A stretch of DNA of 48,939 nucleotides. It comes from Escherichia phage vB_EcoS_PHB17. The position numbers and the translations under genes were made by a program. Below the pieces are notes generated by a model. The model was not told where the DNA came from, searched no databases, and saw nothing but the letters and a program-made list of their open reading frames with translations. The stretch is from sequence record NC_054892.1. One strand, 5' to 3'. The stretch's first letter is position 1. Each line of letters starts with the position of its first letter. This document shows, piece by piece, positions 1,210 to 48,792 of the stretch.

Positions 1210-1529
1210 TGCAAAAGTTCAAAGTGGTGTTAGGCGCAATCATGGTTGTTGCTGGCGTCGTCATGCTGACTGGTTGCGACGGCGACACCAGGACGCCGGA
1301 ACATGCACGCATCAAAATGCAGGTTGAAACGGGAGCAGATCACAACCGCGTTAGCGTGCGCAAGTTGACAGAGTTTGCTGACGGCCTGGCGTACAACGAC
1401 AAGCGCGGGATTTACCTTATCACCGATAAGCAAACGGGCAAGGAATACATTGGCGTTTCTGGTGTCGGTATCACCGAAACAGGATCGCACGCTTGCGGAA
1501 AGGGTTGCACACGCCAGGATGAGCGATAG
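1209..1529 (+). CDS. putative lipoprotein (106 aa)
   Basis: N-terminal hydrophobic segment ending in lipobox LTGC followed by Asp at +2 (CDGD); start overlaps previous stop. Confidence 0.6.
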   Translation: MQKFKVVLGAIMVVAGVVMLTGCDGDTRTPEHARIKMQVETGADHNRVSVRKLTEFADGLAYNDKRGIYLITDKQTGKEYIGVSGVGITETGSHACGKGCTRQDER

Positions 1530-1545
1530 CACTTTTTGTTAAAAC
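1526..1545 (+). promoter_or_regulatory. conserved motif copy ATAGCACTTTTTGTTAAAAC
   Basis: Begins on TAG stop of lipoprotein gene; followed by hairpin GGGGTT..AACCCC containing TATAGT. Confidence 0.5.
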
Positions 1546-9489: not shown

Positions 9490-11058
9490 ATGCTTATTTG
9501 GGAAGATTTGACAGCGGCGCAGAAACGCGCCATTAAAGAAATGAGCGAGCTTTCATTTGAAAAGATGATCCGCATATGGTTTCAACTCCTGCAAGGCCAG
9601 AAGTTTTTAAGCAACTGGCATTTCAGCTACCTATGCAGTGAGGTAGAGAAAATCATTTCCGGCGAATCGCAAAACGTGATCTTTAACATCACGCCAGGTT
9701 CGGGTAAAACGGAAATCTTTTCGATCCATATGTCGCCGTATGCGTCAATCAAAAGCAAAAAGGTGCGCAACCTTAATCTTTCGTTTAGTGATGGCCTGGT
9801 GCAACAGAACAGCAACAGGATCAAGGAGATTGTTGGATCTCCAGAGTGGCAAGAGTTATGGCCTGGCAAGCTGGCGAAAGCCAGCGCCAAAGATCTGATT
9901 GTGCAGGACGAAAACGGGAAAGTTAAGTTGCAGGTGAATTCCCGTTCAATTGGTGGACAGGTTACGGGCTTGCGTGGCGGCTATATGGATGATGGTTTTA
10001 CGGGGATGTTGGTACTTGACGATCCAGACAAACCAGATGATATGTTTTCGAAGGTGCGCCGTGAAGCAATGCAAATGCGCCTAAAAAACACCGTGCGATC
10101 ACGTCGAATGAAAGACACAACGCCAATCGTAATGGTTCAGCAGCGGCTACACGTCAATGATTCTACTTACTTCATGACAAGCGGCGGCATGGGCGGCATT
10201 CAGTTTAAAGTTGTGAGCATTCCGGCGCTAGTTACGAAAGAATACCGCGAAACGCTTCCTGAGTGGTTAATTCCTGAATTTGATCGTGATGTGCTGACAA
10301 GCGAGCCTGTTTATATTGACGGCGTGGCGCATTACTCTTTTTGGCCTGCAAAGGAGAGCGCAAAAGACCTTTTAGCGCTACGCGAGGCCGACCCATACAC
10401 TTTTGCATCACAGTATCAGCAGCATCCTATAGCGTTAGGCGGCAACGTGTTTAAAGTGGATTGGTTCCAGTATTACGGCGACGGCGAGAAATGCACGCTA
10501 CCAAAACCGGAACGCTTTGAGTACACATTTATTACGGCGGATACAGCGCAAAAAGTAGGCGAGCTAAACGACTACACTGTTTTCTGTTATTGGGGCATGT
10601 ACAAAAACCGCGTTTACTTCATTGATGGCGTGCGCGGCAAATGGGAAGCGCCAGACCTTGAAACAAACTTTGTGGCTTTCGTTAATCAGTGCTGGAAGCG
10701 CAACAAAGAATGCGGCTCCTTGCGTAGAATCCACGTCGAGGATAAAGCGAGCGGAACGGGCTTGATTCAGGGGGCAAAGAAAAAGATCCCTATTGATATA
10801 AATCCCGTTCAGCGCAACACGGACAAAGTAACACGCGCGATGGATGCAGCACCAGTTATGAGGGCGGGGCGCGTTGCATTGCCTGAAAACCATCCAATGC
10901 TTGCGGAGCTACTCGCAGAGGTGGCTGCGTTCACGTTCGATGATTCTCATCCAAACGACGATATCGTTGATAACATCGTTGATGCGGTCAACGTGGAAAT
11001 GAACCTCGCAGACGATCCGGTTGCACGCATGAAAAAACTGGCTGGATTGAAGAAATAG
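9490..11058 (+). CDS. terminase large subunit (522 aa)
   Basis: ATPase P-loop TPGSGKTE in N-terminal half, acidic nuclease-type C-terminal half; first of packaging/head genes. Confidence 0.85.
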   Translation: MLIWEDLTAAQKRAIKEMSELSFEKMIRIWFQLLQGQKFLSNWHFSYLCSEVEKIISGESQNVIFNITPGSGKTEIFSIHMSPYASIKSKKVRNLNLSFSDGLVQQNSNRIKEIVGSPEWQELWPGKLAKASAKDLIVQDENGKVKLQVNSRSIGGQVTGLRGGYMDDGFTGMLVLDDPDKPDDMFSKVRREAMQMRLKNTVRSRRMKDTTPIVMVQQRLHVNDSTYFMTSGGMGGIQFKVVSIPALVTKEYRETLPEWLIPEFDRDVLTSEPVYIDGVAHYSFWPAKESAKDLLALREADPYTFASQYQQHPIALGGNVFKVDWFQYYGDGEKCTLPKPERFEYTFITADTAQKVGELNDYTVFCYWGMYKNRVYFIDGVRGKWEAPDLETNFVAFVNQCWKRNKECGSLRRIHVEDKASGTGLIQGAKKKIPIDINPVQRNTDKVTRAMDAAPVMRAGRVALPENHPMLAELLAEVAAFTFDDSHPNDDIVDNIVDAVNVEMNLADDPVARMKKLAGLKK

Positions 11059-11076
11059 CACTAATTGCTAAAAAAC
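11055..11076 (+). promoter_or_regulatory. conserved motif copy ATAGCACTAATTGCTAAAAAAC
   Basis: Overlaps TAG stop of terminase large subunit; followed by TGATATAAT and terminator hairpin. Confidence 0.5.
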
Positions 11077-15354: not shown

Positions 15355-15373
15355 GTTTAACAAAAAGTGCTAT
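15355..15373 (-). promoter_or_regulatory. conserved motif copy, reverse orientation
   Basis: TTAACAAAAAGTGCTAT on plus strand between paralog 2 and major capsid genes. Confidence 0.4.
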
Positions 15374-16398: not shown

Positions 16399-16424
16399 GG
16401 GGAATCCTTCTGGGTTCCCCTTTT
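16399..16424 (+). terminator. rho-independent terminator-like hairpin
   Basis: GGGGAATCC..GGGTTCCCC stem (1 mismatch) plus TTTT after major capsid gene. Confidence 0.55.
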
Positions 16425-18362: not shown

Positions 18363-19022
18363 ATGCACCTTCCTAACGGTTCACAAATTTTTATTGAAAG
18401 CACGCGAGCGGCAGAAAAAGAAGTAACTGCCATTACCAATGCAAAGGAACCAGTTGCAAGCATTTCAGACACCGAAGGTCTGGCAAAGGGCGATATTGTG
18501 ATCGTTGTTGCTTCCACCTGGGGAAAGATGCTTGATCGCGTTCTACGAATCAAAGATGTACAGGAAAACCAGAGCGTAACTCTTGATGGTATCGACACAA
18601 CAGATACTAACGTTTTTCCGGCTGGCGCAACTGCAAGCATTGCGAAAATCACCGCGTGGACTGAGATCCCATGTGTTCAGGATCTTTCGCAGGACGGCGG
18701 CGAACAACAGTTTTACACTTACCAGTGTTTGTCCGACGATCAGGAGCAGCAGATCCCGACCTACAAGAGCGCTGTTTCTATGACTTACACTTTTGCGCAC
18801 GAATACGACAACGCAATTTACCCGCTGTTGCGTAAAGCCGATGAATCAGGCGAAGTAACCGCGTTGCGTATGTACGTACCGAAAGCAAAAGAAATGCGCA
18901 TGTGGGCTGGTGTTCTCTCTTTCAACGAGATCCCACAAACCGCAGTTAACGAGATGGAAACCGTTTCCATCTCTTGCTCCCTTAAAGGGCGCTTTACTTT
19001 CCTTCCTGCAACGCAGGGTTAA
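18363..19022 (+). CDS. major tail protein (219 aa)
   Basis: AAGAGG RBS; followed by the strongest terminator in the window then the chaperone genes. Confidence 0.7.
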   Translation: MHLPNGSQIFIESTRAAEKEVTAITNAKEPVASISDTEGLAKGDIVIVVASTWGKMLDRVLRIKDVQENQSVTLDGIDTTDTNVFPAGATASIAKITAWTEIPCVQDLSQDGGEQQFYTYQCLSDDQEQQIPTYKSAVSMTYTFAHEYDNAIYPLLRKADESGEVTALRMYVPKAKEMRMWAGVLSFNEIPQTAVNEMETVSISCSLKGRFTFLPATQG

Positions 19023-19024
19023 CC

Positions 19025-19050
19025 AAAAGGGGCATTGCGCCCCTTTTTTT
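19025..19050 (+). terminator. rho-independent terminator
   Basis: GGGGC-ATTGC-GCCCC flanked by A4 and T7, after major tail protein gene. Confidence 0.85.
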
Positions 19051-19089
19051 ATTGCTGTAGAATCATCCTACCAAAACAAACCAAATCGC

Positions 19090-19108
19090 TTTTAACAAAA
19101 AGTGCTAT
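19090..19108 (-). promoter_or_regulatory. conserved motif copy, reverse orientation
   Basis: TTTTAACAAAAAGTGCTAT on plus strand between major tail terminator and chaperone gene. Confidence 0.4.
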
Positions 19109-19124
19109 TCATGGAGAAATCAAA

Positions 19125-19442
19125 ATGTCTAAATTCAAACTCACCCTTGCCCCGCTTCCAAACTTCAAACTTCCGGTTAAATTTGTAATGCCAGATGGTA
19201 ACGAAGGTTCGATCCTGTTTACGGTTCGCCACCTGAAAGCAAAAGAAGTGCAAGCGATGTATGAATCCGAAAGCGTAGTTACTGATTCTGAATTTATCAT
19301 GAAACTGGCTACTGGTTGGGATCTGGAGGAAGAATTTAACGAGGAGAATGCAAAAACCCTTGTTGAGCTTTACCCTGGTGCGGCGCTTGCCCTGACTGGT
19401 TCCTATCTTTCAGCGCTGGCAGGTCAACGCGTAAAAAACTAA
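19125..19442 (+). CDS. tail assembly chaperone (G-like, 105 aa)
   Basis: ATG 19125 after GGAGAAA; ends with slippery A AAA AAC directly before stop. Confidence 0.75.
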   Translation: MSKFKLTLAPLPNFKLPVKFVMPDGNEGSILFTVRHLKAKEVQAMYESESVVTDSEFIMKLATGWDLEEEFNEENAKTLVELYPGAALALTGSYLSALAGQRVKN

Positions 19443-19756
19443 AACGGGCGGTTTATCTGTTTTACCAGAAGCCGCCCACAGATGCAGAGCTTGAGGCCGT
19501 AGGTTTAACCCGCGCTGATTACGAAGGTGAGGAGCCTCCTGAGATTATCTTTGATGAAAGCATGATGCAATCATGGGATATATTTTGCGCTATGCAAACT
19601 CAATGGCGATCCGCTGGTGCTGGTGCTTACGGCTTTGATTACAATGTTTTGCCTATGTTGTTCAAAATCTATAAAATAGAAGATGAAGAAATGGCATTGA
19701 ATGACTTGCGAATCATGGAAAGCAAAGCGCTTGAAATGATGCACGCGAGCAAATAA
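19125..19756 (+). CDS. tail assembly chaperone G-T fusion made by -1 programmed frameshift
   Basis: Heptamer A AAA AAC at 19433-19439; the -1 frame is open from 19367 to 19756. Confidence 0.6.
19433..19439 (+). other. -1 ribosomal frameshift slippery heptamer AAAAAAC
   Basis: X XXY YYZ in zero frame of chaperone gene, 1 codon before its stop. Confidence 0.65.
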
Positions 19757-19757
19757 C

Positions 19758-19781
19758 AAAGCGCCTACGGGCGCTTTTTTC
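19758..19781 (+). terminator. rho-independent terminator-like hairpin
   Basis: GCGCC-TACG-GGCGC plus T6 between frameshifted chaperone and tape measure genes. Confidence 0.7.
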
Positions 19782-19798
19782 ATATCGGAGGAATAGTT

Positions 19799-22489
19799 AT
19801 GGCGGAACAATACGCGGGAATTTCGTTAGGCGTTGACGTTTCACAAGTCAATAACGCCGTAAAATCCTTGCAGCAGTTCAAACAGGCAAACCACGACGCA
19901 GCAAAAAGCGTTGAGGGCTTTGTTGATCAGGAACAAGTTGCAAAGCAGCGCTCGAAAGAGCTTGCACAAGAGTTGGCAAAACAGCGCAAGGAATTTCAAA
20001 ACATCCAAAACGCGATTGACCCAACGGCGGCTAAAATGGATCGCTTGCGCCAGGCGTCCAAGCAATTAGATAGCCTTTGGAAAAAAGGCATTGTGCCTGA
20101 TAAAGATTTCTTTCAGTTGGGGGAAATCCTTGAGGCTCAAGAATCAAAGCTGCAACGAAACAGAAAGGCGCTAACAGAGGAAGGGCGCGCGGCGCTTGAG
20201 GAGTCAAAGCAGAAAGCCAGGGCAGCAGCAGAGGCGCAAAAATTCATTGCGGCTCTTGAGGCGCAAGCGGCGGCGGCTGGAAAGACTCAAGCCGAACTAA
20301 CGGAAATGAAAGCGGCTCAATTGGGCGTAAGCGCACAGGCAGCGCCATTTATCGCGCAGATGCGAGCGCAGGAAAAGGAAGTTGAAAAGTTAGGAATCTC
20401 AATGGGGCAGTATCGCCAGGCTATGCGAATGCTTCCGGCGCAGATCACAGACGTTGCAACTTCACTTGCTGGCGGTATGCCGATTTGGTTAGTGGCAATC
20501 CAGCAGGGTGGACAGATTAAGGATTCTTTTGGCGGTCTTGTTCCGATGTTCAAGGCGCTTGCAACATTCATCACGCCTTTCAATGTTGGTCTTGCGGCGC
20601 TGGTTGGTACGTTGGGTTATCTGACTTACAACGCGTACAGTTCTAAAAAGGCACTCGATGAGGTATCAAAAACCGTTCAGGATGCAACGGGGCTTTCCGG
20701 CGAGTTCGCGGAAAAGATTTCGTTAGGTGTTCAGGCGTTAGCAGACGCGAGCGGCAAGAGCGCAGATGAGATCGCAAAGGCTTACATTTCCACGAAAGAC
20801 GGCGCACAGGAAGCGATTGAAAAGCTGGTTAACGTTGGCTTTAGCTATGACGAAGCGCGGGAGAAGGTGGAGCAATATAAAAATGCTTCCAGCTTTGTGA
20901 CGCTAAACAATGAGATTGCTGATCATATGAACAAGGTGCTTGAATTGGGTGATTCCTGGTTTGAGGTGCTCAAGAAGAAAAAAGAGTACATTTCACCTAC
21001 TGGCGGCGGCGGTGGCTCCCTGGCTGACAAAGAGTTAGGCCACGTAAACAAGGCTCTTGTTTTTGCGAAACAGACGCACGCCGACATTGCAAAGATCGTG
21101 AAAGACAGCAACGTTGATTTTGCAAAGCGTGCTGGCGAGATTGACAAAACAAACCTTTCCCTAAACCGCTTGCGTGCAGCACAGGAAGCACTAAACAAAG
21201 CGATTGAGGATGAAAAATATGTTGCTCAATCTTCAGACAAGGAGCTAAAGAAAAAGGCGGCTGAAAACGTAGCGTTGCGCCGGAAAGAGCTTGAGGAGTT
21301 ACAGAAACTTGAGCAGAAGAAAGGCAAGACCAAAACGCAGGGCGGGATCACGAAAAGCCCAACAGAACAGCTTGATAAAGAGTTGTACGTTTTGAAAGCG
21401 CAGTTAGAAACGCTGAAAGAGCATCGCACTGTTAACGATGTGATTTCGCGCCAGCGCCAAGCGTTGTGGAGTGTTGAAAAGCAGATCCAGATCTTGCAGG
21501 AAGCGCAAAGCAAACGCGGCCTAACCGCAGCAGAGAAAAAGCTATTGGCGGAACAGCAAAGCGTGCTGGAGTTGTCAAAGCAAAAAGCGGAGTTGGGCGA
21601 TCAAATTTTGATTCAGGAGCGCAAAAACAAACTTGAGCAAAATTCAGTCGATTTTATCCGCGAGACTACCGCAGCGATTGAGGAGCTAAACCTGAAACAA
21701 CAGGGCATGACGGATCAGCAAATTCAGCGCGAGCTTGAGTTGCAAAAAATCCGGTCTGATTACCTTGCGAAAGGCGGAAGCGTTGATGATACAGCGTTGC
21801 AGGACATGATCGCGAAACGCAAGGAGTATTTCGAAATGGAGGATCAGTTACAAGGCAACTGGCTTGCTGGAGCTAAAAAGGCGTTTGCCGATTACGGGCA
21901 GGAAGCAACCAACATGTACGCCAATGTTAACGAAGTCGCTACGGCTGGCCTGAATGGTTTATCGTCGTTAATGACTGACTTCCTGACTACCGGAAAAGCC
22001 AGCTTTAAAGATTTTGCAAGTAGCATCATTAAAATGATTGTTCAGATGATCGCTAAGATGGCAATCTTTAACGCTATTTCCGGCGCGATGGGTGGCAAAA
22101 CATTCTCGTTTTCTGGACTGGCTAAAGGTTATGCTGGAGGGGGTTACACTGGTGATGGCGGAAAGTATGATCCGGCTGGCGTGGTTCACAAAGGTGAATT
22201 TGTATTCACCAAAGAGGCAACACAGAGGATCGGAGCCAAAAACCTTTACCGCTTGATGCGTGGCTACGCTAACGGCGGCAGTGTTGGCGGTTCGGCTCAA
22301 ACGAGAGGCGCGTCGGTTGGCAGTGTTGGATCTCAATTCAATTTCGGTGATATCATGGTTGACGTGAACAACGGCAACGACCCGCGAGGAATGGAAACAG
22401 GGATCAAGATGATTTTCACTGAAATGATTCAACGGGCGTGCTCGCAGGGCGGCGAGGTATATAACTTTGTTAATAGTAAGAGGGGGTAA
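19799..22489 (+). CDS. tail tape measure protein (896 aa)
   Basis: Long coiled-coil-rich ORF after the chaperone pair; Gly-rich C-terminal region. Confidence 0.85.
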   Translation: MAEQYAGISLGVDVSQVNNAVKSLQQFKQANHDAAKSVEGFVDQEQVAKQRSKELAQELAKQRKEFQNIQNAIDPTAAKMDRLRQASKQLDSLWKKGIVPDKDFFQLGEILEAQESKLQRNRKALTEEGRAALEESKQKARAAAEAQKFIAALEAQAAAAGKTQAELTEMKAAQLGVSAQAAPFIAQMRAQEKEVEKLGISMGQYRQAMRMLPAQITDVATSLAGGMPIWLVAIQQGGQIKDSFGGLVPMFKALATFITPFNVGLAALVGTLGYLTYNAYSSKKALDEVSKTVQDATGLSGEFAEKISLGVQALADASGKSADEIAKAYISTKDGAQEAIEKLVNVGFSYDEAREKVEQYKNASSFVTLNNEIADHMNKVLELGDSWFEVLKKKKEYISPTGGGGGSLADKELGHVNKALVFAKQTHADIAKIVKDSNVDFAKRAGEIDKTNLSLNRLRAAQEALNKAIEDEKYVAQSSDKELKKKAAENVALRRKELEELQKLEQKKGKTKTQGGITKSPTEQLDKELYVLKAQLETLKEHRTVNDVISRQRQALWSVEKQIQILQEAQSKRGLTAAEKKLLAEQQSVLELSKQKAELGDQILIQERKNKLEQNSVDFIRETTAAIEELNLKQQGMTDQQIQRELELQKIRSDYLAKGGSVDDTALQDMIAKRKEYFEMEDQLQGNWLAGAKKAFADYGQEATNMYANVNEVATAGLNGLSSLMTDFLTTGKASFKDFASSIIKMIVQMIAKMAIFNAISGAMGGKTFSFSGLAKGYAGGGYTGDGGKYDPAGVVHKGEFVFTKEATQRIGAKNLYRLMRGYANGGSVGGSAQTRGASVGSVGSQFNFGDIMVDVNNGNDPRGMETGIKMIFTEMIQRACSQGGEVYNFVNSKRG

Positions 22490-22847: not shown

Positions 22848-22873
22848 AAAGCCGCCTTTGTGCGGCTTTTTTA
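22848..22873 (+). terminator. rho-independent terminator
   Basis: AGCCGC-CTTTGT-GCGGCT plus T6. Confidence 0.8.
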
Positions 22874-24981: not shown

Positions 24982-25006
24982 ACCCCGCCTTGCGCGGGGT
25001 TTTTTA
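24982..25006 (+). terminator. rho-independent terminator
   Basis: CCCCGC-CTTGC-GCGGGG plus T6. Confidence 0.8.
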
Positions 25007-29955: not shown

Positions 29956-30013
29956 GTTATCGCCTCCTATCTGTTAATCAATGCCGTAACTATAACACCA
30001 AACGGCGCGGCGG

Positions 30014-30031
30014 TTTAGCAAAAAGTGCTAT
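30014..30031 (-). promoter_or_regulatory. conserved motif copy upstream of minus-strand operon
   Basis: Reverse complement ATAGCACTTTTTGCTAAA; TATAGT about 22 nt downstream on minus strand, then AGGAGG and ATG. Confidence 0.5.
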
Positions 30032-36463: not shown

Positions 36464-36483
36464 ATAGCACTTTTTGTTAAAAT
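36464..36483 (+). promoter_or_regulatory. conserved motif copy ATAGCACTTTTTGTTAAAAT
   Basis: In divergent region between HTH gene and helicase; TGTAGTATAGC downstream. Confidence 0.5.
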
Positions 36484-40125: not shown

Positions 40126-40145
40126 ATAGCACTAATTGCTAAAAC
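40126..40145 (+). promoter_or_regulatory. conserved motif copy ATAGCACTAATTGCTAAAAC
   Basis: Directly after TAA stop; hairpin CCCGC..GCGGG. Confidence 0.5.
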
Positions 40146-45391: not shown

Positions 45392-45410
45392 TTTTAACAA
45401 AAAGTGCTAT
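45392..45410 (-). promoter_or_regulatory. conserved motif copy, minus strand
   Basis: Overlaps TAG stop of 45407-45652; hairpin GTTGCCG..CGGCAAC with TATACT, then AAAGGAG and ATG 45337. Confidence 0.5.
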
Positions 45411-47442: not shown

Positions 47443-47461
47443 TTTTAGCAAAAAGTGCTAT
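47443..47461 (-). promoter_or_regulatory. conserved motif copy, minus strand
   Basis: Followed on minus strand by TGTATAATG about 22 nt after TTGCTA, then RBS and ATG 47386. Confidence 0.55.
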
Positions 47462-48420: not shown

Positions 48421-48439
48421 TTTTAACAAAAAGTGCTGT
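48421..48439 (-). promoter_or_regulatory. conserved motif variant (ACAGCAC), minus strand
   Basis: Directly after TAA stop of 48441-48716; hairpin GGGGTTAG..AACCCC with CATAAT. Confidence 0.5.
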
Positions 48440-48773: not shown

Positions 48774-48792
48774 TTTTAGCAAAAAGTGCTAT
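48774..48792 (-). promoter_or_regulatory. conserved motif copy, minus strand
   Basis: Upstream of first gene of minus early operon (ATG 48716). Confidence 0.5.

Follow-up and report, generated by a model that had tools for sequence, protein, structure and literature searches.

A stretch of 314 nt without a conventional gene separates a predicted tail chaperone gene, G, from the tape measure protein gene of Escherichia phage vB_EcoS_PHB17, and the question that this locus raises is whether the stretch encodes protein and, if so, by which route ribosomes reach it. The window, i.e. the whole stretch of DNA that was analysed, is 48,939 nt long (sequence record NC_054892.1). The window phage is a T1/Tls-like siphovirus of the Drexlerviridae, subfamily Tempevirinae; the best DNA match of the region 18363-20500 is Escherichia phage vB_EcoS_W011D (85.7% identity), and 229 phage records match this region. 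The IMG/VR contig UViG_2974745880 is identical to the window. The G/GT frameshift belongs to the textbook knowledge on long-tailed phages, and an earlier note on this DNA, made from its letters, had proposed such a shift at the end of G. We suggest that the locus is very probably the form that the siphovirus G/GT programmed -1 ribosomal frameshift takes in the T1 family.

Gene order and reading frames

Two open reading frames, G and T, separate the major tail protein gene from the tape measure gene. The elements of the locus are:

18363-19022, plus strand: open reading frame for the predicted major tail (tube) protein, the upstream neighbour (Pfam Phage_tail_3, PF08813, E 6e-67)
19113-19116, plus strand: putative Shine-Dalgarno sequence GGAG serving G and GT, 8 nt before the ATG at 19125
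19125-19442 including the stop, plus strand: G, predicted tail assembly (tape measure) chaperone, 105 aa, frame 0 (Phage_TAC_4)
19433-19439, plus strand: slippery heptamer A_AAA_AAC in the X_XXY_YYZ register, found in relatives and identical in T1
19440-19442, plus strand: frame-0 stop TAA adjoining the heptamer, invariant in position, TAA or TGA in relatives
19439-19756, plus strand: T extension in the -1 frame, 105 codons plus stop (DUF1799; PHROG 17368)
19787-19791, plus strand: putative Shine-Dalgarno sequence GGAGG of the tape measure gene
19799-22489, plus strand: predicted tape measure protein gene, the downstream neighbour (Pfam TMP_2, Tape_meas_lam_C)

Ribosome binding sites equivalent to the GGAG at 19113-19116 are annotated in the records of Citrobacter phage Sazh and of T1. 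In frame 0, G ends with the codons GTA (19431), AAA (19434), AAC (19437) and TAA (19440), and both the coordinates and the register that the earlier note had given for this end and for the heptamer are right. In the -1 frame, a TGA at 19364-19366 is followed by open sequence up to the TAA at 19754-19756, in agreement with the earlier note; the extension of about 105 residues read from this frame comprises 105 codons that start with CTA at 19439, and the fused GT, join(19125..19439,19439..19756), has 210 aa. From 19367 to 19561 the -1 frame contains no ATG, GTG or TTG, i.e. there is none in the first 41 codons of T, and the first possible start in this frame is the ATG ATG at 19562.

The motif AAAAAAC is not enriched in the window (17 copies observed versus 26 expected from shuffles), and by our own estimate an in-register X_XXY_YYZ motif would arise by chance in a 25-codon overlap with a frequency of about 10%. 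Judged from the letters, the heptamer taken alone is no more than chance, and it is the comparative evidence that is decisive.

Conservation of the site and of the extension

The comparison set consists of 35 related IMG/VR loci with G proteins that are 59-94% identical. The heptamer together with the directly adjoining stop is unchanged in 34 of the 35, the exception being a locus (L037) in which G is disrupted. The codon before the heptamer varies from GTA to GCA among the relatives with its final A retained and, with more distant phages included, the first base of the heptamer is invariant across GTA, GCA and GAA codons. The stop varies from TAA to TGA, a change that in the -1 frame converts CTA to CTG, i.e. 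Leu to Leu. At the same spot, Ralstonia phage YO158_1 has G_GGA_AAC with an adjoining TGA and Pectobacterium phage Abuela has A_AAG with an adjoining TAA; Rogunavirus (GCA AAG GTC TAA) and Webervirus (GCA AAA GTT TAA) have one sense codon between motif and stop.

Synonymous variation, defined as the pairwise synonymous difference over 33 distinct fused coding sequences, is 0.00 at V103, K104, N105 and K107, compared to 0.39 gene-wide and about 0.6 just upstream, and codons 103-111 form the segment with the lowest value (0.19) in these sequences. In the same 33 sequences invariance is complete or almost complete across residues 106-119 (LKRAVYL.YQKPPT), and it is exactly at the heptamer that the -1 frame starts to be conserved as protein. 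Upstream of the heptamer this frame is open for 28-169 nt depending on the relative, suggesting that its openness from 19367 onwards is incidental; because the upstream part measures only 28 nt in one relative (L035), the shift would be confined to the last nine codons of G.

The two halves of the predicted fusion match known protein families, as judged against the gathering thresholds (curated cut-offs) of Pfam. G matches Phage_TAC_4 (PF08748) with 117.6 bits (cut-off 21.1), residues 1-105 aligning to positions 1-124 of the profile, and the T part matches DUF1799 (PF08809) with 45.2 bits (cut-off 26), residues 127-206 of the fusion aligning to positions 2-80. On PHROG 17368, which has 213 positions, G occupies positions 1-107 (E 7e-41) and T positions 108-210 (E 8e-57); G and T are thus contiguous, which argues that the family is defined by fused proteins. 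With the T extension as a query, tblastn matched 1,134 phage records, with alignments that start at residue 1-2 even at 38-50% identity. In total, these comparisons argue that the -1 extension is real coding sequence and a true protein domain.

An AlphaFold model of the 210-aa fusion, built on a 16-sequence alignment, is confident (mean pLDDT 86.5, pTM 0.77), and in it one long helix, residues 84-114, spans the junction. The top structural match of this model in BFVD is a 210-aa 'Tape measure chaperone' of Klebsiella phage Solomon (TM 0.88, E 1.7e-25), and further matches in BFVD are the fused chaperones of phages Scapp, Shivani, Seurat, Loki and K1H. A Foldseek search of the model against the PDB gave no significant match, the HK97 gp10-type chaperone 2ob9_B being a weak match at rank 15 (E 1.4, target-normalised TM 0.37); a PDB sequence search with GT gave no match, and no family was found in NCBIfam.

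Proposed slippage, its alternatives and its candidate modulators

We suggest that most ribosomes would translate G (19125-19439) and terminate at the TAA at 19440 to give the 105-aa chaperone and that a small minority would slip one base back on A_AAA_AAC. In this tandem slip, tRNA-Lys would exchange one AAA for another and tRNA-Asn would exchange AAC for AAA; the slipped ribosomes would then read CTA AAA CGG and onwards in the -1 frame up to the TAA at 19754. The product would be a GT protein of 210 aa in which the G domain is joined to the DUF1799 'T' domain with the junction ...QRVKN-LKRAVY.... The earlier note had placed the junction at ...QRVK|KLKR; this does not hold under tandem slippage, in which Asn105 is kept (...QRVKN|LKRAVY), and would hold only if the slip preceded A-site decoding. 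As trypsin would cut the junction to VK/NLK/R, a mass-spectrometry test needs another protease, and the predicted junction peptide for Glu-C is LYPGAALALTGSYLSALAGQRVKNLKRAVYLFYQKPPTD. In the literature searched, we found no direct evidence of the GT protein in the window phage or in any other T1-like phage.

A variant of this model, which we regard as possible and on balance unlikely, is a single slip of the peptidyl-tRNA-Asn in the P site, from AAC to AAA, while the TAA, which is slow to decode, occupies the A site (a 'shifty stop'). It would fit with a stop that adjoins the motif in all relatives, even in the forms G_GGA_AAC TGA and A_AAG TAA, and with the poor tolerance of bacterial ribosomes for AAC-to-AAA re-pairing in the A site, to which the weakness of AAAAAAC has been ascribed (PMC4066793); a nearby stop codon is important for -1 frameshifting in pea enation mosaic virus, and 'shifty stops' have been described (PMC5009743). 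However, in Rogunavirus and Webervirus a sense codon intervenes between motif and stop, and the first base of the heptamer, which is needed only for the tandem slip, is nevertheless invariant through GTA, GCA and GAA. This invariance favors the full heptamer model. Both routes would give the same peptide ...VKN-LKR... and are inseparable by sequence data. Alternatively, the fusion could be made at the level of the transcript by RNA polymerase slippage on the A6 with addition of one A, which we consider very improbable. The site does hold six consecutive A and an extra A would yield ...VKKLKR..., i.e. the junction given in the earlier note, but slippage of this type is unlikely for a 6-nt run; known bacterial transcript-slippage sites need runs of about 9 or more. 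Moreover, the conserved unit is more than a run, namely the full in-register heptamer with its C, and relatives have G_GGA_AAC or A_AAG at the same place without a long homopolymer.

Still less probable is that T is a separate gene with its own internal start and without any frameshift. A separate T coding sequence is annotated in the records of W011D, MezzoGao, TR2 and BECP10, many relatives have a TTG 50 nt past the G stop, and the window has the ATG ATG at 19562. Unlike these relatives, the window lacks the alternative TTG, which is CTT here, and it has no other start in the -1 frame before 19562, a position that is not preceded by a Shine-Dalgarno sequence; the 41 codons before this position are conserved as protein from the first codon past the heptamer, both PHROG 680/17368 and tblastn matches starting at residue 1-2 extend over them, and the starts that annotators have chosen disagree with each other. 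Homopolymer runs are error-prone in some sequencing chemistries, and the split could in principle be an artefact or a pseudogene in which the A6 was miscalled or mutated from an A7 in a single GT gene. The probability of this reading is negligible in our view, given that the exact A6, C and stop are present in 34 independent genomes or metagenome contigs as well as in T1, Tls, TR2 and two Dhillonvirus phages and that the position of the G stop is invariant.

For the preferred ribosomal frameshift, the efficiency of the heptamer becomes a central issue. The description of A_AAA_AAC as a classic slippery site in the earlier note is apt for eukaryotic systems; in E. coli it is a low-efficiency motif (PMC4066793). 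In E. coli reporters, AAAAAAC gave 0.163% frameshifting without a stimulator, 0.189% with the IS911 stimulators and 0.739% with the IS3 pseudoknot, and AAAAAAG gave 0.29%, 4.3% and 39%, respectively (PMC4066793). Values of the order found for AAAAAAC lie near background when no strong stimulator is present. A heptamer of such low intrinsic strength in E. coli makes a low GT:G ratio probable, in the range of about 1% to a few percent. Lambda needs a low GT:G ratio, about 1:30 (PMC5009743), which makes a weak site plausible here, and the ratio in the window phage may be lower still. It may be tuned by the adjoining stop, by the conserved CUAAAA spacer and by a hairpin 6 nt downstream:

19446-19477, plus strand: candidate stimulatory stem-loop, 6 nt past the heptamer (-19.3 kcal/mol, z -1.85)

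Of 28 distinct sequences, 25 retain the stem core GGCGG/CCGCC, wobble positions included, with 88% of cells paired. Across the same 28 sequences compensatory changes were found at 0 pairs, and the pair count is no better than in shuffles. In one subclade (L007, L010 and L011) the hairpin is broken by synonymous changes with the heptamer retained, and in TR2 and BECP10 the hairpin is absent with the shift site still present. Strong hairpins that differ from this one lie equally far from the motif in Dhillonvirus and in the Ralstonia phage. We therefore treat the hairpin at 19446-19477 as a candidate stimulator only. The CUAAAA spacer after the heptamer shows almost no synonymous change in the 33 coding sequences. 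An upstream Shine-Dalgarno-like stimulator (AGG at 19421-19423) was considered and rejected: its codons differ from relative to relative, synonymous variation peaks there, with values of 0.73-0.75 for GCN GGN at -18 to -13, and no conserved Shine-Dalgarno-like element was found about 10 nt upstream of the heptamer in the 33 fused coding sequences. An Rfam scan of 18900-19900 returned only sub-threshold terminator-like matches.

Related systems and the surroundings of G/GT

The match to the G/GT arrangement of siphoviruses that the earlier note had drawn is borne out by gene order, -1 frame, missing start, conserved heptamer and annotated orthologues, all of which agree. In T1 (AY216660) a 'tape measure chaperone, frameshift product' is annotated as a two-piece join (AAP50000.2) next to G (AAP49960.1), and the same two-piece join is annotated for tfmA/tfmS of Tls (AY308796) and for CPT_Sazh_046/047 of Citrobacter phage Sazh. 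The window, T1, Tls and Sazh have in common the gene order, the Pfam families, the heptamer in the context GCA/GTA AAA AAC TAA, the GGCGG...CCGCC stem and the terminator between T and the tape measure gene. The T1 site reads GCA AAA AAC TAA AAA GGG CGG..., with heptamer, stop and stem as in the window. Identity of the window G to proteins of the T1 and Tls types is no more than 59-73%. W011D, the best DNA match of the window, has no annotated join, and the KLB26 record has a misc_feature noting 'unable to determine'. For the T1-like phage Skenny, a G/GT-like frameshift is mentioned in the genome announcement (PMC6763657).

The lambda G/GT system (Levin, Hendrix and Casjens 1993; Xu, Hendrix and Duda 2004, 2013 and 2014, as cited in PMC5009743) has the same position between the major tail and tape measure genes, a T that likewise lies in the -1 frame and lacks a start, a slippery heptamer towards the 3' end of G and a minor fusion with presumably the same role. 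By analogy, G and the G part of GT would coat the tape measure protein, the T part would recruit the major tail protein, and neither G nor GT would be found in the final virion. The two systems differ in that the lambda heptamer, G_GGA_AAG, lies five codons before the G stop whereas that of the window adjoins the stop, and in that the T gene of lambda overlaps the tape measure gene H, no terminator lying between the two. They also differ in their Pfam families, which are Phage_TAC_2 (PF06894) and Phage_tail_T (PF06223) in lambda and Phage_TAC_4 and DUF1799 in the window. The G and T proteins of lambda itself match PF06894 and PF06223, whereas those of the window gave no Pfam match to these two families at E up to 0.01; in BLASTP the window proteins gave E 0.09 with lambda G and no alignment with lambda T. 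As judged by these searches, the window G and T are not sequence-level members of the lambda G/T families.

Two further E. coli systems help to place the site. IS1 insA-insB' uses the same A_AAA_AAC in the same host group and is a proven natural -1 site of low efficiency, with reduced synonymous variability and no established stimulator (PMC4066793); it differs from the window in that the product is a transposase and in its unrelated flanking context. The dnaX site of E. coli, A_AAA_AAG, is like that of the window an A-rich heptamer with a hairpin a few nt downstream. However, the dnaX heptamer ends in G, for which frameshifting with a strong stimulator is 39% as opposed to 0.74% for C, and dnaX has an upstream Shine-Dalgarno sequence whereas the window has no conserved one and its hairpin is only a candidate. 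Also, the dnaX shift shortens the protein whereas the shift in the window would lengthen it.

The DNA around and within G/GT contains several other conserved elements:

19025-19054, plus strand: terminator-like hairpin after the tail tube gene (stem 19025-19047 with 9 pairs, 5 of them G-C, then a T-run)
19056-19066, plus strand: conserved TGTAGAATCAT box with a -10-like TAGAAT at 19058-19063 (CTGTA(G/A)AATCA in relatives and T1)
19090-19108, plus strand: 19-mer TTTTAACAAAAAGTGCTAT, one member of a dispersed repeat, with its end 17 nt upstream of the G start
19640-19690, plus strand: nucleotide block within T, nearly invariant across clades, with a promoter-like TTGCCT-17-TAAAAT at 19649-19677
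19758-19783, plus strand: intrinsic-terminator-like hairpin between T and the tape measure gene (stem 19758-19777, then a T-run)

The G/GT cistron is thus bracketed by two terminator-like hairpins, 19025-19047 and 19758-19777. The first is conserved in relatives and labelled as a terminator in the Sazh record. The second, which the earlier note had pointed out as a terminator-like hairpin after T, is indeed present; its stem starts one base past the T stop and has 8 pairs, 5 of them G-C, with the loop TACG. In the relatives it occurs with three stem sequences (the AAAGCGCC, GAGCGCC and AGCCGCC types), each followed by a T-run, and a rho-independent terminator is annotated at the equivalent of 19758-19783 in T1 and Sazh. 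In the window, this element has the properties of a rho-independent terminator, i.e. a G+C-rich stem-loop followed by a T-run, an intergenic position and a conserved structure. It is reasonable to suggest, as the earlier note did, that this hairpin may attenuate readthrough into the tape measure gene. No promoter-like element is present between the second hairpin and the start of the tape measure gene.

Upstream of G, the TGTAGAATCAT box could possibly be a promoter for G/GT, as its -10-like hexamer suggests; the box in the form TGTARAATMAY is not enriched in the window. The 19-mer TTTTAACAAAAAGTGCTAT occurs in 11 copies in the window versus 0.04 expected and lies upstream of G in 16 loci compared, T1 included. 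As a sigma-70 promoter by itself it was rejected on the spacing seen in the sequence. Its core, TTTAACAA, may resemble the rrn boxA. A literature search for the 19-mer found no paper.

Combining these elements, we tentatively put forward a broader scheme that we consider doubtful as a whole: (i) the weak heptamer that always adjoins the G stop, the CUAAAA spacer and the hairpin might form a composite 'stop-adjacent' -1 signal in which competition with termination sets G:GT, (ii) G/GT might be a separately dosed unit, insulated by two terminators and lying downstream of a promoter-like box of its own and of one 19-nt repeat copy, and (iii) the promoter-like block in T could feed the tape measure gene or yield a short transcript.

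The assignment of a G/GT frameshift to this locus is correct and well supported, but it is already known, being annotated in T1, Tls and Sazh. The locus is correctly modelled as G plus join(19125..19439,19439..19756) for the 210-aa GT; in numerous public Drexlerviridae records T is annotated apart from G with an arbitrary start, or both G and T carry the name 'tail length tape measure protein'. For the biology of these phages there is nothing new in kind. This lineage relies on a host-weak heptamer that always adjoins the stop, and related lineages swap other shifty motifs in; the family may for this reason be a convenient natural series for understanding how frameshift efficiency is set.

A dispersed 19-mer and its composite unit

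The window carries a dispersed repeat, the 19-mer TTTTAACAAAAAGTGCTAT, which occurs in 11 copies with three or fewer mismatches versus 0.04 expected.

Copies of the 19-mer in the window
1526-1544, minus strand, second module upstream
11055-11073, minus strand
15355-15373, plus strand
19090-19108, plus strand, ending 17 nt before the start of G, the tail assembly chaperone gene
30013-30031, plus strand
36464-36482, minus strand, second module upstream
40126-40144, minus strand, second module upstream
45392-45410, plus strand
47443-47461, plus strand
48421-48439, plus strand, second module upstream
48774-48792, plus strand, second module upstream

Most copies are intergenic, several have a -10-like hexamer on the same strand approximately 20 nt upstream, and the copy upstream of G is kept in 16 fetched loci, including that of T1. 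The TTTAACAA core may resemble the boxA of rrn operons. A search of the accessible literature with the 19-mer sequence found no paper quoting it. We suggest that the 19-mer may act as an operator or as a leader element.

A second module, GTTTCGTTTCGATG(G/A)GG..TA(C/T)TAT, lies approximately 20 nt ahead of the 19-mer in at least five copies, marked in the list, and the two together form a composite unit of approximately 60 nt. Possibly, this unit is a promoter specific to the phage; how it is oriented with respect to the genes is ambiguous in the divergent early regions.

The G/T locus in related phages

Homologous pairs of G and T, the latter being the -1 frame extension of the chaperone, carry differing shifty motifs at the same position, at most two codons from the G stop, as seen by comparing L041 (MezzoGao), L044 (BECP10), L046 (Ralstonia phage YO158_1), L047 (Abuela), L042 and L045 (Dhillonvirus) and L043 (TR2). 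These pairs are a natural series in which the motif is replaced at a fixed site. The sole relative with an interrupted G is L037 (IMGVR_UViG_2706796530_000001, about 1501-1808), in which a stop follows after 57 codons and a search for an in-register heptamer found none; this interruption could stem from faulty assembly, or the copy could be defective.

Public annotation of the locus is inconsistent, as in L001 (W011D), L003 (KLB26), L041, L043, L044, L045 and the RefSeq copies: T is missed, is given as a separate CDS with an arbitrary start, or is recorded as a misc_feature carrying the remark "unable to determine intron boundaries", and in L045 (Teewinot) a small ORF is called on the opposite strand at the T locus. 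In RefSeq, both G and T are named "tail length tape measure protein".

A conserved block in T and terminator-like hairpins of the late operon

Inside T, the nucleotides of the block AATGTTTTGCCTATGTTGTTCAAAATCTATAAAATAGAAGATGAAGAA (19640-19690) are almost unchanged across clades although the flanking codons differ, and synonymous variation falls here to 0.11, the minimum for the gene. Among its codons is ATA, a rare choice for Ile (10 of 246 Ile codons), and it also contains a promoter-like TTGCCT-17-TAAAAT; if the block were a promoter, the terminator at 19758 would follow the start after only some 75-100 nt. In the subclade L007/L010/L011, both the conservation of the block and the frameshift-proximal hairpin are missing.

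Whereas T1-like phages have only the terminator of approximately 40 nt between T and the tape measure gene, Dhillonvirus has a non-coding gap of approximately 385 nt, which in Sodalis phage SO-1 (L042, 922-1305) is annotated as the repeat "region A" with direct, inverted and palindromic repeats and which is also present in Teewinot.

The five strongest terminator-like hairpins between 15 and 26 kb each lie within a few bases 3' of the stop codon of a structural gene on the plus strand.

Terminator-like hairpins after structural-gene stops
16399-16420, plus strand
19025-19047, plus strand
19758-19777, plus strand
22848-22869, plus strand
24982-25000, plus strand

The T1 record has terminators annotated at equivalent places after the T1 tail genes. 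Partial terminators seem to punctuate the late operon, and in that way they may set the dosage of the downstream genes.
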